DNA from: Escherichia phage vB_EcoM_Skers
Sequence record: MW748999.1
Reading direction: 5' to 3' (one strand)
Length of the DNA stretch: 64,000 nucleotides
Numbering within the stretch: position 1 is the first letter of the stretch; every line of letters starts with the position of its first letter. Positions 31,262 through 37,387 of the stretch are shown here, in pieces. Both the position numbers and the translations under genes were made by a program. A model generated the notes under the pieces. That model had not been told where the DNA came from, made no database searches, and was given only the letters and a program-made list of their open reading frames with translations.

Positions 31262-32497
31262 TTATACTGCCATTTGAGCGGTGATTGCTGGATGGCTTTG
31301 ATAGTTGTGAATTTTAAAGTCTTTCGGAGTCTTTGTCAATACCTCATCTAAAGACTTAAATTCCGGCAACTCAATTGTTGGTTTATCAAACGGAACACGG
31401 CTTAACTGTTCCATAACTTGATCAAAATGGTTTTTGTAAATGTGGCAATCCCCACACTGATAAACCAGTTCGCCAACTTCTAACCCGCAAATCTTCGCGA
31501 TGATATGCGTTAACAGTGCATAGCTCGCTACGTTGAACGGATTCCCTAAAAAGAGATCATTCGAACGCATGAAAAATAAACAACTCAATTTGTTGTCGTT
31601 GGAAACATAAAACTGTACCATCGGATGACATACACCTAACACAGCATTATGCGTTTCCTGTACGTTCCATGAATCAATGATAATACGACGACTATACGGA
31701 TCATTCTTGATCATGTCAATAACTTTTTGTAACTGGTCTTCCCAAATCTTCGGGCGATAGACATATTCTTCATCGTCTTTAGTGCTTGATGTGTCTACGT
31801 CCATACTAGCAAAGATCGTGGTATCTGGTGCTAAAATATCCCCACCCAGATAATCACTATCAAGCAGATAACCGAAATAACCATCATCTACCCATTCCTG
31901 GAATCCCCACAAGCAATATGCATCATTAACAAAATTAGATTGAGTCTTCCAGTGATCGGCTACTAAGAATTGATTATATTCAGAATCAAACTCTTCATAA
32001 CGCATACCACGCCAGATAGCACATAAACGGTCTTCTGTTTCATTGGTTGGCGTAAAGTCTTCTACCCACGGGTGCTTAAATGTATGTGCATATTTGCTCT
32101 TAACTCGCTTAATTTTGATTTCACCGTGTGGATGAATCGGTTTGCGTCGCCACGCCATACCATACATATTGCCGACATTATAACCATTGAATCGCAAGGG
32201 ATTCTTTTCTTTCATATCAAGACAGTTGCCGCGCCAAATATCAAAGGCTTCCTCGTCAAACTTGCCGCGTGTAATTTCCTGTAAGCGACGGCGGTCAAGT
32301 GATCCCTCCATAAACCATAGCAATTCGCCAATTACAGAGGCTGTAGCCATCTTTTTAGTGGTCAGTAAGGGGAAACCCTTGCTTAAATCAATTCGCATCT
32401 CTGCGCCGAATTTAGAGAGCGTACCTACCCCCGTTCGGTCGTCACGAGGCCAACCATTATCAAGAACATCACGCAATAGTTTCAAATATTCTTTCAT
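31262..32497 (-). CDS. td: Thymidylate synthase with about 115-aa in-frame insertion
   Basis: RDDRTGVGT, catalytic CHPMVQFYV, LGNPFNVASYALL (Asn, dUMP-type); 411 aa versus about 286 aa for T4 Td. Confidence 0.85.
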   Translation of the reverse strand: MKEYLKLLRDVLDNGWPRDDRTGVGTLSKFGAEMRIDLSKGFPLLTTKKMATASVIGELLWFMEGSLDRRRLQEITRGKFDEEAFDIWRGNCLDMKEKNPLRFNGYNVGNMYGMAWRRKPIHPHGEIKIKRVKSKYAHTFKHPWVEDFTPTNETEDRLCAIWRGMRYEEFDSEYNQFLVADHWKTQSNFVNDAYCLWGFQEWVDDGYFGYLLDSDYLGGDILAPDTTIFASMDVDTSSTKDDEEYVYRPKIWEDQLQKVIDMIKNDPYSRRIIIDSWNVQETHNAVLGVCHPMVQFYVSNDNKLSCLFFMRSNDLFLGNPFNVASYALLTHIIAKICGLEVGELVYQCGDCHIYKNHFDQVMEQLSRVPFDKPTIELPEFKSLDEVLTKTPKDFKIHNYQSHPAITAQMAV

Positions 32498-33415: not shown

Positions 33416-33745
33416 TCAAATCAGTTTAAAGAAGTTTTCGTTTACATTTTCTTCTGTGATCTCGGTTTTAAATTCATTACCATCATCGGGAGAAACATAA
33501 TAGCGTTCGGAATAATCACGCCACATTTTCAGTAAGCTGACACCAACATTAACACCGTTTTCCCAGAAACGGAATACAATTTTATGTGCGGTGTAACGAT
33601 AATCACTTTGAATTAAGCTGCCATCCCCGCGACGAGATTCATAAACCGTAATACAATCGCGGTTAGCGGCGTTAAGACATTCTTCAATAGTCCCGCATGA
33701 GACAATTTCGGTTGATTCGTCTACGATTTTTTCTACTGTCCACAT
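33416..33745 (-). CDS. Hypothetical protein (109 aa)
   Basis: ORF with SD GAGGA downstream of PeSL. Confidence 0.55.
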   Translation of the reverse strand: MWTVEKIVDESTEIVSCGTIEECLNAANRDCITVYESRRGDGSLIQSDYRYTAHKIVFRFWENGVNVGVSLLKMWRDYSERYYVSPDDGNEFKTEITEENVNENFFKLI

Positions 33746-33776
33746 AATATAATCCTCTCTTTGTTTCGATGTTTGT

Positions 33777-33804
33777 ATTATACACTGTTGCGTTACGCTG
33801 TCAA
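33777..33804 (-). promoter_or_regulatory. PeSL-type early promoter (no palindrome)
   Basis: TTGACA-N16-TATAAT. Confidence 0.6.
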
Positions 33805-34971
33805 CTCTTTTTCAAAAGATTTTACGATATACATGATAGTGCTCAATTCAGACGGCGCTACTGTCTCTGTCCAGCCATCCGGCATATCTTCTTTCGAGAT
33901 ATAGGAAGTTTTACCTTTCATCGCTTCCTTGATTTTGTTTTCTAATTCTAAGATCTTTTGACCATCTTGTAAAGTCAATTCATAAAAGATCTCGTGATCG
34001 AACTTTGAAACACGAGATTGGTTTCTCATGCGCTCATGTGTTTCTTTGTTTGTTATTCCAAATTTCACGCCAACAAAGGAATCATTGTTGGTTAATTTCT
34101 GTATATAAAGAGTTCCTGTCTTTAATGCCTGATAACCATGCTTAGAACACAACGGGCAGCGTGTTCCGCGATTAACAAAATTATCAATAGTTACAACCCA
34201 TTCATGGTTACGTTCGCATGTCAGAAGTATTCTTGTTAATGCACCTTTCCACTTTCCTGAAATCCCAATAAATTTTAGTCTGTTGGTTTCGCATATTTTT
34301 TCAATTTGTTTTAATCGGTCACTTTTTGTTATTGGTGCTGTTCCGCTACATTTGTGACACCGACGACCTAGTTTGAACTTATCATAACTTTGTTCGTAAA
34401 TGTGATTATTAGGACACTCAAATTTAAGTTTAGTTTTTGTTCCTTTCCATTCCCCAATTATACCCAAAAATTTATAATCTCCTTTATTTTCATTTATATA
34501 AGATAAGGAATCTTCTTTATCATACATCTTGCCACCGTTACATAAAGGACATCTTGTTTTTTGATGAATGAAATCTGTATATGTTGGTTGGTATGTGTGT
34601 CCGTTTGCACAGTTCATAATGAGTCTTGTTCTGCTATTTTTATACTCCCCACCAACAAAACCAACAAATACATCGTTTGTTTCTTGTTTTATTCTTTCTA
34701 TCACATGGTTTAGGTTTAATCTTTGAGAATCAACCACACATTTCTTACACGAAACTTTTTTCCTGATATTTGCTAGAGTTGATGTGTATTCATGCTTGTT
34801 ATTACATAATATAAGAGCTTTTGTTTTGAGACCAGACCATTCTCCAACAAACCCCATGAAAGAATAACCAACTTCCAAACATGAATTTTTTACAACATTT
34901 TCCCAATAGAAGGGAGTTTTCGTGTTTCCTTTTATTTCTATACGAATCTCATGTGCTTGACGTACTAACAT
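33793..34971 (-). CDS. Repeat protein: four zinc-ribbon-like repeats plus C-terminal GIY-YIG-like (T5orf172-type) domain
   Basis: Four ~60-aa repeats F.G..GEW.G..T...C.N.H...(x)...RC..C; C-terminal GTLYIQ...VKFGITNKETHERM...HEIFYEL...GWTE; start trimmed to ATG 34971. Confidence 0.5.
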   Translation of the reverse strand: MLVRQAHEIRIEIKGNTKTPFYWENVVKNSCLEVGYSFMGFVGEWSGLKTKALILCNNKHEYTSTLANIRKKVSCKKCVVDSQRLNLNHVIERIKQETNDVFVGFVGGEYKNSRTRLIMNCANGHTYQPTYTDFIHQKTRCPLCNGGKMYDKEDSLSYINENKGDYKFLGIIGEWKGTKTKLKFECPNNHIYEQSYDKFKLGRRCHKCSGTAPITKSDRLKQIEKICETNRLKFIGISGKWKGALTRILLTCERNHEWVVTIDNFVNRGTRCPLCSKHGYQALKTGTLYIQKLTNNDSFVGVKFGITNKETHERMRNQSRVSKFDHEIFYELTLQDGQKILELENKIKEAMKGKTSYISKEDMPDGWTETVAPSELSTIMYIVKSFEKELTA

Positions 34972-35001
34972 AATTTTATCCTCCTTTGTTTCGATGTTTG
35001 T

Positions 35002-35029
35002 ATTATACATCCTAACATCAGCATGTCAA
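35002..35029 (-). promoter_or_regulatory. PeSL-type early promoter (no palindrome)
   Basis: TTGACA-N16-TATAAT. Confidence 0.6.
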
Positions 35030-35049
35030 CACCTTTTTCATAAAAATTT

Positions 35050-35081
35050 AGGCAATAAAAAAGCCTCCCCGAAGGGAGGCT
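35050..35081 (-). terminator. Intrinsic terminator downstream of gene 32
   Basis: AGCCTCCCttcgGGGAGGCT followed by TTTTTTATTGCC on minus strand. Confidence 0.7.
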
Positions 35082-35091
35082 GTAAAATTCA

Positions 35092-36066
35092 TTACATCGC
35101 TAACAGAGAATCCAGGTCATCCAGATCAGAAGCGGAGGAAGTACCGCCACCCAGATCCAGAGATGCCATCAGGTCATCAGCGGAAGAATCTAACGCCGTG
35201 CTAGCTGCGTTAATACCAACTACAGTGCTAGCTGCGGTCATACCAGAATCGAATGCATTCATCTGTGCGTCAAAATCGTCAAGCTGGCTGTTAATCGCTG
35301 CCGCAGCACTGGAAGCCGCAGCACCAGCTACCATAGAAACGCCCATAGTTTTCTTAAATTTGGTTTCCAGTTCATCGAACGGTTTAAACTGGCTAGGCGC
35401 TACAATCTCACTCAGATCAACCATGTTTTCCATCAGATATTTCTGATATGCTTCGTCTTCAATTTTCGGAAGCTGTGATTGCTGCATGAAACGAGAATCA
35501 TCATAGTTCTGGTGTTTATCAACCTTCTTAGCTTTCAGGAGGAAGTTAGCACCAGAGAACACACAAGTTACATCGACCGGAACTTCGCCCATATCGGTAT
35601 TCACGTTCACCATTGCAACGATCTTATCATAAATTTTCTGACCGAAGCGGAATTTGAATACCTTACCTTCATTTTCTGGTGCTTGAGGATCTTTCAGTAC
35701 CAGAATGTTTGCGTAGTAAGACGCTTTACGCTTAATCAGTTGCCATTCGGTTTTATCGGTATTGTACAAGTCTTTTTCGTTAATATATTTGCACACAGGG
35801 CAAGAATCAAAATCACCGTGGGTGCTGGAGCAGTTTTCCCAATACCATTTGCCATTAACTTTGAAGGAATGGTTTACCAGTTTCACAATCGGCAGACCGT
35901 CTTCTGTCTTAGACGGCAGGAAGCGAATCAGGGCTTCACCGTTACCTGCTGCATCAGTCTTAATCTTCCACTCTTTCGGATCTTCTTTGGAGAAACCGTT
36001 GCCACCTTTCAGTGCGGCCAGTTGAGCTTGCAATTTGGAGCTATCTTGACGACGAAACATGTTCAT
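35092..36066 (-). CDS. 32: Single-stranded DNA-binding protein gp32
   Basis: Strong match to recalled T4 gp32 (LPSK, NGKWY, CSSTHGD.DSCPVC zinc site, acidic C-tail). Confidence 0.92.
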
Positions 36067-36126: not shown

Positions 36127-36723
36127 TTAATTGCTTGTCAATACTTTATCAATTATATCTAACAGTTTTGGCTTTCTATTTTCAAATTCTAACATCTCTT
36201 CGGGAGAAATGTCAACTACTTCTGTTTTGTTGAAAAAGTTTGGGTCTATAGCATCAGCAACAAAGTTTCTCGCAAGTGCTGCCGCTTTCTCATGAACATA
36301 TATTCCCAAATATATCAACTTCTTTCTTTCGACCTGAATATTGGCAACATATTTACCATCTCGTTTATAAAGACTAACACCGATATATTCAGACGATCGA
36401 CCTTTCTGTTTACCCATATTTCTTGAGTTTTGTTGCTCGTTCGCATCTCTCAAGTTTTCAATCCGATTATCTGTTATAATTCGGTTAACATGGTCAACGT
36501 ATTTTGGCATGTATCCATGATGCATAAAGAAAATTATTCTATGCTCTTTATGATGTTTACCATCGATACACACCAATCTGTATCCATGACTAGGATTAAC
36601 TCCACCCGCTCTAGATCCGACTTTATGCTTTCGGTTTGTCGATATCTTGCGAATCAGCTTACCGTTATCATATTTAAAGAGTTCATGACAACGAGCATAC
36701 AATTCAGGATCATATGTTTTCAC
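36127..36723 (-). CDS. HNH homing endonuclease with AP2 DNA-binding domain
   Basis: HNH motif HHGYMPKYVDHVNRIITDNRIENLR; AP2-like SEYIGVSLYKRDGKYVANIQV; inserted between genes 59 and 32. Confidence 0.75.
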   Translation of the reverse strand: MKTYDPELYARCHELFKYDNGKLIRKISTNRKHKVGSRAGGVNPSHGYRLVCIDGKHHKEHRIIFFMHHGYMPKYVDHVNRIITDNRIENLRDANEQQNSRNMGKQKGRSSEYIGVSLYKRDGKYVANIQVERKKLIYLGIYVHEKAAALARNFVADAIDPNFFNKTEVVDISPEEMLEFENRKPKLLDIIDKVLTSN

Positions 36724-37387
36724 CTTTTAACCTCGATATTTCTTTACACTCTTTAACTACTTTAACAAATAATGCTCTTGCTTTTGCGGCGTCAATAACA
36801 AGTAGTTTCTTGTACGCCTTCATTTTAACACTATAAGTTTGCCAAATCAAGTCTTTGGCTACCTTGTCGTGTTCGTCGATTATATTTAGAAAGCTATCTA
36901 ACAACATAAACGACTCAAACGATATAATCCGATTTTGCAGTAGTTTAAAAATACCGCTTGTTTCGGTTGCGGGATTATATGTAATTAGCTCTTTAAGAGT
37001 AACCCCGCGTTTCTCGGAGAAGTATACCAGACTTTTAATGTCATCGTCAAATCTTGTTGCTGCATCGGTTATCTTTCCTATGTATTCCATATAAAAGCCG
37101 TATGCGTCAACATCAGTGATTTCACCTACCCATGCATCGGTATTGGCTACCAGATTGCTTAGGAATAGGAAGTATAATTCTCTTAGATTGTATTTTTCCG
37201 CTAATTTCGCGAAATAATACTTATCTCTGCGTTTATTGAATGCGGCATCAGATAACCGCATCCTCCAATTATATTTTACGCAATCATAACGCCCGTTCAT
37301 ATGAGCTTTCATCATGCAATATAACATATACACAGATTTAGCATTAATTCGCATATCTGGATCTGGAGGAAGACGGTTTCTGATCAT
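36710..37387 (-). CDS. 59: Helicase loader gp59
   Basis: KSVYMLYCMMKAHMNGRYDCVKYNWRMRLSDAAFNKRRDKYYF matches recalled T4 gp59. Confidence 0.9.
   Translation of the reverse strand: MIRNRLPPDPDMRINAKSVYMLYCMMKAHMNGRYDCVKYNWRMRLSDAAFNKRRDKYYFAKLAEKYNLRELYFLFLSNLVANTDAWVGEITDVDAYGFYMEYIGKITDAATRFDDDIKSLVYFSEKRGVTLKELITYNPATETSGIFKLLQNRIISFESFMLLDSFLNIIDEHDKVAKDLIWQTYSVKMKAYKKLLVIDAAKARALFVKVVKECKEISRLKGENI

Follow-up and report, generated by a model that had tools for sequence, protein, structure and literature searches.

The gene beside gene 32 and its product

Within a 64,000-nucleotide stretch of the genome of Escherichia phage vB_EcoM_Skers (MW748999.1; the whole stretch is hereafter the window) we analyzed a minus-strand gene that lies next to gene 32 and codes for a protein of 392 residues, in which four tandem copies of the CapR zinc-finger domain precede a predicted nuclease domain of the T5orf172 class. 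An earlier note on this DNA, drawn from the sequence alone, had singled out this product, and we recovered the open reading frame (ORF) with the same ends, length and strand (Table 1). In the direction of transcription the genes are ordered as 59, a gene for an HNH endonuclease, 32, the CapR nuclease gene, an ORF of 109 residues, frd, a small ORF and td. Between genes 32 and the CapR nuclease gene, the gene 32 stop codon is followed by a terminator hairpin and then by a sigma-70 promoter, so that the earlier claim of a promoter dedicated to the gene is upheld by a perfect match to the consensus. A Shine-Dalgarno sequence, AAGGAGG (34980-34986), is positioned 8 nt 5' of the start codon. A longer reading of 405 residues from an ATG at 35010 was rejected, both because this codon shares bases with the promoter's -10 box and because the annotated start with the strong Shine-Dalgarno sequence is at 34971; the annotation of the related Enterobacteria phage GEC-3S likewise does not begin at 35010.

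The 2-kb stretch around the gene matches 58 records, all of them from Krischvirus (RB49-like, T4-type) coliphages, with GEC-3S showing 93.6% identity, and the gene is annotated in relatives too (e.g. GEC-3S). We collected 55 homologues of the protein, and in PHROGs the family phrog_681 'endonuclease' covers its whole length (E 3e-100). In tblastn searches several places were hit per record, probably because repeats of a single gene matched each other. NCBIfam gave no match for the protein, nor did PADLOC, which means that it is not a named defence protein. No second copy of the gene was found within the window or in the first 50 kb of phage phi1. The GC content of the gene is 34.3%, as against 40.2% for the window.

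Table 1. Coordinates of the CapR nuclease gene, its parts and the surrounding features in the window
Feature	Position	Strand	Remarks
Coding sequence: four CapR repeats and T5orf172-like nuclease domain; putative free-standing homing endonuclease	33793..34971	-	392 residues plus stop
CapR zinc-finger repeat 1	34726..34923	-	residues 17-82; C56, H60, C75, C78
CapR zinc-finger repeat 2	34528..34725	-	residues 83-148; C121, H125, C141, C144
CapR zinc-finger repeat 3	34333..34527	-	residues 149-213; C186, H190, C205, C208
CapR zinc-finger repeat 4	34132..34332	-	residues 214-280; C252, H256, C272, C275
Predicted T5orf172/MUG113-like domain of GIY-YIG fold	33796..34131	-	residues 281-392
Conserved 3' segment	33796..34008	-	residues ~322-392; 93-98% nucleotide identity in all alleles at the locus
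Perfect sigma-70 (early-type) promoter of the CapR nuclease gene, TTGACA-16-TATAAT	35002..35029	-	12/12 consensus; annotated in GEC-3S
Terminator hairpin of gene 32	35062..35081	-	with the promoter, a PeSL-type cassette
Second perfect sigma-70 promoter, driving the downstream 109-residue ORF	33777..33804	-	-35 box within the last codons (..ELTA, stop) of the nuclease gene
Upstream copy of 84-bp direct repeat	34968..35050	-	promoter, leader and ribosome-binding site
Downstream copy of 84-bp direct repeat	33742..33824	-	single copy in empty-site phages
Gene 59	36710..37387	-	
HNH endonuclease gene	36127..36723	-	198 residues
Gene 32	35092..36066	-	
Downstream 109-residue ORF	33416..33745	-	
Thymidylate synthase gene	31262..32497	-	411 residues

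The four N-terminal repeats have a period of about 65 residues and each comprises a helix, the motif F-x-G-x-x-G-E-W-x-G, a C-x3-H pair and then a C-x2-C pair. While any two of them are only 24-36% identical, the pairwise local alignments among them sum to a score of 549, versus 135 +/- 11 in 500 shuffles (z = 37), which confirms that the tandem Cys/His repeats proposed earlier are real. Pfam recognizes them in four stretches as the CapR homology domain (PF21817; 98.7 bits against a cut-off of 24.2, E 2e-28), and also as DUF4379, a 'probable treble clef zinc finger' (PF14311; 44.3 bits against 24.5). When 21 homologues are aligned, hardly any position of the repeat region is invariant apart from the Cys ligands, eleven Cys being invariant or nearly so. 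The full-length AlphaFold model (mean predicted local distance difference test score, pLDDT, 85.5; predicted template modelling score, pTM, 0.34) displays four confident alpha-beta-beta-beta-alpha units joined by low-confidence linkers, in the manner of 'beads on a string', and by this model the repeats are independently folded, predicted zinc-finger units separated by flexible linkers. PHROG 559 'HNH endonuclease' also matches the repeat region.

The domain after which PF21817 is named is found in CapR, a zinc-finger DNA-binding repressor of the Vibrio cholerae satellite PLE, whose Cys pairs are required for DNA binding (Netter et al. 2021, PMC8096241); its Cys-rich domain is homologous to the repeats described here, although CapR acts as a repressor on its own and has no nuclease domain, whereas the Skers protein couples four fingers to an apparently intact nuclease domain. 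Among more distant proteins with CapR repeats, seven (P0042-P0044, P0051-P0053 and P0055) end in a different domain with the motif GE..I...L......DF...IEY.G..H, which by eye resembles a PD-(D/E)XK/Vsr-type nuclease, and the CapR finger array thus appears to have been combined with several nuclease types.

The C-terminus of the Skers protein contains the elements GTLYIQ, VKFGITN, ERM, HEIFYEL and GWTE, in which the earlier note had seen a T5orf172/GIY-YIG-like domain. Y289, K303, G305, R314, E344, D365, G366, T368, E369 and T370 are invariant in the family, and Y289, R314, E344 and E369 remain so across all 21 to 28 aligned relatives. By position, Y289 would correspond to the Tyr of the GIY motif, K-F-G (303-305) to the YIG motif, R314 to the conserved Arg and the invariant acidic residues to those that follow beta3, and Y289, R314, E344 and E369 are spaced as expected for such a putative catalytic set. 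R314 lies 10 residues past F304 of K-F-G, a distance that we take to match the Y17-to-R27 spacing of I-TevI, this being a positional mapping and not a residue-level structural alignment. An AlphaFold2 model of residues 277-392 (pLDDT 95.2) has the order beta-beta-alpha-beta-alpha-alpha, with strands at model positions 10-19, 22-31 and 49-58 and helices at 35-45 and 61-74, and so contains the beta1-beta2-alpha1-beta3-alpha2 order of the GIY-YIG fold. In BFVD, a collection of predicted viral structures, there were 103 matches at E <= 1e-3, including entries named GIY-YIG, T5 Orf172, homing endonuclease and CapR-homology.

The T5orf172 profile of Pfam does not match the Skers protein itself; among 28 aligned relatives of the domain it matches 13, as MUG113 does 19 (best E 1e-6) and GIY-YIG two. 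The homologue P0036, 35% identical over its full length, passes the T5orf172 cut-off (23.2 bits against 20), and P0032 passes that of MUG113 (26.5 bits against 22.3). Direct sequence links are provided by phage T5 Orf141 (T5.141; 34% identity over 249 residues), the GenBank note of which reads 'similar to RB49ORF239C', and by tblastn matches to 'putative homing endonuclease' genes of phage ICP1 (E 3e-7) and to a record labelled 'T5orf172 domain-containing protein'. Membership in the T5orf172/MUG113 group hence rests on the relatives, the fold and the direct BLAST links to T5.141 and the ICP1 genes, and a nuclease-like fold is predicted for the C-terminus as the earlier note had suggested.

The reversal of the classical domain order, to which that note had also drawn attention, holds relative to I-TevI and the Seg proteins but is no novelty, as an N-terminal finger region and a C-terminal nuclease domain are standard for the CapR/T5orf172 class (PMC8096241, PMC10448857). 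In ICP1, relatives of CapR were found as the N-terminal domains of proteins that have a C-terminal T5orf172 domain and that in turn resemble T5 Orf141 (PMC8096241). A survey by Barth, Dunham & Seed (2023, PMC10448857) assembled 229 T5orf172 putative homing endonucleases, 87% of which carry CapR, DUF723 or DUF4397 zinc fingers, often in multiple copies; the authors likened these proteins to beads on a string and recorded among them in-frame deletions mediated by repeats, as well as swapping of domains. ICP1 Gp53, Gp121, Gp130, Gp165 and Gp174 and T5 Orf141 thus share with the Skers protein the N-terminal CapR fingers (often repeated), the C-terminal T5orf172 domain, direct sequence homology and a position beside essential genes.

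An allelic series at a single slot

The earlier note had suggested checking whether the gene is absent from relatives, and the 32/frd-side interval proved to be polymorphic within Krischvirus. In the 58 records the slot is, by approximate counts, empty in ~6 (including KMB43, JSE, FL20, LF73P4 and PHB13), holds an unrelated ORF of 109 residues in ~24 and holds a CapR-T5orf172 gene in ~28. The unrelated slot ORF (MFLNATLSQKSDK...; e.g. 3116..3445 of L008, a phage ECD7-like contig) likewise relies on the promoter proximal to gene 32. Insertion of the CapR nuclease gene is precise, the junctions leaving the flanking genes intact. Three divergent homologues that we traced (404, 400 and 338 residues; 46-53% identical) occupy exactly the same slot, as does a 485-residue version in RB49. 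The cassette is bounded by two copies of an 84-bp direct repeat, which are 78.6% identical and represent the sole two matches in the window to the promoter-plus-leader pattern. In gene-free phages (KMB43 and the contig L009) one promoter-plus-leader copy is present and directly drives the downstream 109-residue ORF.

Sliding comparison of the alleles with the window revealed 96-100% identity across gene 32, only ~40-58% in the first ~900 nt of the nuclease gene and again 93-98% over its last ~210-250 nt. In this profile the 3' segment behaves as the conserved backbone does, and most alleles also have the first ~30 nt (MLVRQAHEI) in common. At the 90% identity level the proteins fall into at least 33 clusters, the last 70 residues of which are at least 93% identical, and the allele of the window itself is found, at 95-99% protein identity, in only seven records of the GEC-3S group. 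As the flanks are 98% identical, the variable part cannot be explained by divergence in place through point mutation; instead, the sequences suggest that the variable 5' part has been exchanged by crossovers in the conserved ends.

The number of repeats among the slot alleles is 2, 3, 4, 5 or 6. Clean in-frame loss of whole units is evident on comparing P0011 (4 units) with P0028 (2 units), and also in the pairs P0005/P0023 and P0021/P0030; in such unit-deletion pairs, e.g. 4 units versus 2, the outer units are 98-100% identical. Conversely, the alleles P0002, P0007 and P0012 have internally similar units (55-78% identity), while units of different alleles average 32%, which points to recent tandem duplication in place. 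Repeat-mediated in-frame deletion and domain shuffling are thus common to the ICP1/T5 class and the Krischvirus alleles. The Krischvirus representatives are set apart from that class by their occurrence in a T4-type coliphage, by the four repeats and the sub-threshold nuclease domain of the Skers protein, and by their place at one fixed locus with a large allelic series, in which a constant 3' third is joined to a hypervariable 5' two-thirds. Beyond this locus, the homologue P0036 (2412..3590 of contig L013) resides in another T4-type phage contig between gp9 and a DNA methyltransferase-like gene beside gp8, so that the family is found at differing conserved-gene junctions from one T4-type lineage to another.

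The class and its domain order are already known, while the constant 3' end combined with a finger array that is hypervariable in sequence and length between near-identical phages goes beyond the literature; RB49 and Krischvirus are absent from the main text of both PMC8096241 and PMC10448857. It is this allelic series, with its constant nuclease tail and hypervariable finger array, that in our view deserves follow-up.

Proposed function and competing explanations

We propose, with moderate confidence, that the gene codes for a site-specific endonuclease of the CapR/T5orf172 class and, as a free-standing selfish cassette of the homing type, occupies the space between gene 32 and the 109-residue ORF. 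The enzymatic part of this proposal draws on the four CapR units and the phrog_681 match, the model of the C-terminal domain, the Pfam matches of the relatives, the homology to T5.141 and the ICP1 genes and the invariant motif residues. Mobility is signaled by the empty sites, the precise insertion, the low GC content, the distant homologues at other junctions and the downstream promoter embedded in the gene, and on these grounds we infer that the gene homes. Given its early-type promoter, the gene would be transcribed early, from the sigma-70 promoter that follows the gene 32 terminator. The finger array would recognize a long, asymmetric stretch of DNA, close to which the nuclease tethered to it would cut, so that in a mixed infection genomes with an empty site or another occupant would be cut near the 32/frd-side junction. 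Recombination-dependent repair would then copy the gene and some of its flank from the carrier, resulting in homing or marker exclusion as with the Seg and Mob genes of T4. The placement of the downstream promoter inside the last codons of the nuclease gene would disfavour its clean deletion. The finger array itself could be replaced, expanded or contracted by recombination, for which the conserved upstream promoter and first codons on one side and the conserved last ~210-250 nt on the other might serve as homology arms.

A parallel in setting is offered by SegA-G of T4, and SegG in particular, which share with the Krischvirus gene the free-standing state, membership in the GIY-YIG superfamily, an embedded downstream promoter, presence/absence polymorphism and a place beside gene 32. 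The earlier note had called the frd-to-32 interval a known hotspot of freestanding homing endonucleases in T-even phages; in T4, segG is the endonuclease gene that adjoins gene 32, and it occupies the 32/59 interval rather than the frd side, its product cutting gene 32. The T4 free-standing endonuclease genes also harbour, within their coding regions, the promoters of genes downstream (PMC2988022). In Seg proteins the nuclease comes first and a DNA-binding region of helix-turn-helix type is C-terminal, the reverse of the arrangement in the Skers protein with its zinc-finger array.

Several observations weigh against the homing endonuclease proposal. The protein itself falls short of the MUG113 threshold (13.8 bits against 22.3, E 0.09), a search of PDB sequences with the C-terminal family profile returned one spurious match only (E 1.8), and the fold support for the GIY-YIG assignment has to be considered moderate because a Foldseek search of the C-terminal model against PDB yielded nothing significant. 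A recently spreading homing gene would be near-identical wherever present, as the neighbouring HNH gene is, whereas the CapR nuclease gene forms an allelic series. We sought the cleavage site through flank polymorphisms, but empty and occupied genomes did not differ consistently there. A consensus early promoter precedes the gene, while the endonuclease-specific promoters of T4, including those of the seg genes, are middle or late, never early (PMC2988022), and no gene of the T5orf172 class has experimentally verified homing (PMC10448857). Finally, a duplicated promoter and leader bounds the cassette; double-strand-break homing makes no such duplication, which better fits recombination mediated by PeSL elements.

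PeSL (promoter-early stem-loop) elements combine a terminator with an early promoter. In RB49 and phi1 they have been shown to bring about insertion, deletion and the formation of mini-circles (Arbiol et al. 2010, PMC2839356), and this raises the possibility, which we regard as real though clearly the lesser one, that the slot contains a PeSL-type cassette shuffled by ordinary recombination between promoter/terminator repeats. The nuclease would then serve in conflicts by cutting competing phages, satellites or host elements, as ICP1's own T5orf172 nuclease, Odn, does, and the variability of its fingers would reflect an arms race. The phage group, the terminator and consensus early promoter upstream, the 84-bp promoter-plus-leader repeat that flanks the cassette and is single in empty-site phages, and the insertion, deletion and replacement of cargo, the last exemplified by the unrelated 109-residue ORF in ~24 records, all recall the PeSL cassettes of RB49 and phi1 (PMC2839356). 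The extreme divergence and the range from 2 to 6 repeats, set against flanks of 96-100% identity, are also well accommodated, and T5orf172 nucleases that do not home have precedent (PMC10448857). Yet hairpin and promoter occur together on the upstream side only; the downstream repeat consists of promoter and leader, lacks the stem-loop half and is partly coding. Moreover, PADLOC offers no match, and, where PeSL cargo is mostly made up of small ORFans, the cargo here is a nuclease gene possibly driving its own inheritance; shuffling and nuclease-driven inheritance can in any case coexist. In another and, to our mind, rather doubtful scenario, the slot is a fast-evolving targeting cassette, in which a constant nuclease half is re-armed with new arrays of 2-6 fingers, duplicated, deleted or swapped, in an arms race where alleles cut one another or competing phages. 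Were this so, the CapR fingers would read DNA modularly, with a few base pairs per unit, and could be re-engineered like zinc-finger or TALE arrays.

We also considered that the protein might be a domesticated sequence-specific DNA-binding regulator comparable to CapR of PLE, which represses capsid genes of ICP1, with the C-terminal domain being dead or turned into a DNA-binding or oligomerization module. CapR is indeed a repressor derived from the same finger domain, the ICP1 genes were described by Netter et al. as being without the canonical GIY-YIG motif (PMC8096241), T5orf172 was first annotated as DNA-binding, and early expression would fit a regulator. However, the C-terminal domain absent from CapR is retained here, and its four motif residues are invariant across all the aligned relatives, a degree of conservation that makes a pure regulator role unlikely. 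The gene is furthermore dispensable, with ~10% of the records having an empty slot and ~40% another occupant, and on balance we deem this explanation improbable. The notion that the repeats and the likeness to nucleases arose by chance or from composition in a non-coding or mis-called ORF is refuted for practical purposes by the shuffling statistics (z = 37), the Pfam E-value of 2e-28, the 55 homologues, the confident AlphaFold2 models and the annotation in relatives.

The endonuclease proposal provides a family and a likely function for a gene that most Krischvirus records call 'hypothetical protein' or generic 'endonuclease', and extends the CapR/T5orf172 class from ICP1 and T5-like phages to RB49-type coliphages, which are used in phage therapy. 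Its wider interest lies at the level of the population, where at least 33 alleles below 90% identity combine a near-identical 70-residue tail and near-identical flanks with unalignable arrays of 2-6 fingers. If the enzyme homes or excludes rivals, these alleles would represent a natural series in which to study DNA recognition by CapR fingers and the turnover of endonuclease specificity. As E. coli and Krischvirus are tractable, homing by the T5orf172 class is directly testable in phage crosses.

Neighbouring genes

The HNH gene between 32 and 59, the slot of segG in T4, codes for a free-standing endonuclease with HNH_3 and AP2 domains (Pfam). It is present in 11 of the 58 Krischvirus records, in eight of which it is 99.5-99.8% identical, and is absent from GEC-3S, RB49 and KMB43. 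Gene 32 of Skers is accordingly flanked by two different endonuclease genes, a situation that resembles the 'HEG (homing endonuclease gene) island' idea of Barth et al. 2023.

The 109-residue ORF downstream of the CapR nuclease gene belongs to no Pfam family. A search of viral contigs with it produced two loci only, neither with a CapR nuclease gene. It is 89% identical to its counterpart in the empty-site phage KMB43 and 74% to that of GEC-3S, whereas the nuclease gene next to it shares 97.7% identity with its GEC-3S equivalent, and this disparity places a recombination breakpoint at the 3' end of the nuclease gene or at the embedded promoter. A breakpoint at the 3' end accords with the theme developed by Barth et al. 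that nuclease genes mark exchange boundaries.

Further along, a Pfam profile of 266 positions spans residues 2-411 of the thymidylate synthase, implying that ~125-145 extra residues are accommodated inside its domain; the enzyme is of similar length in RB49 (410 residues) and in other Krischviruses.

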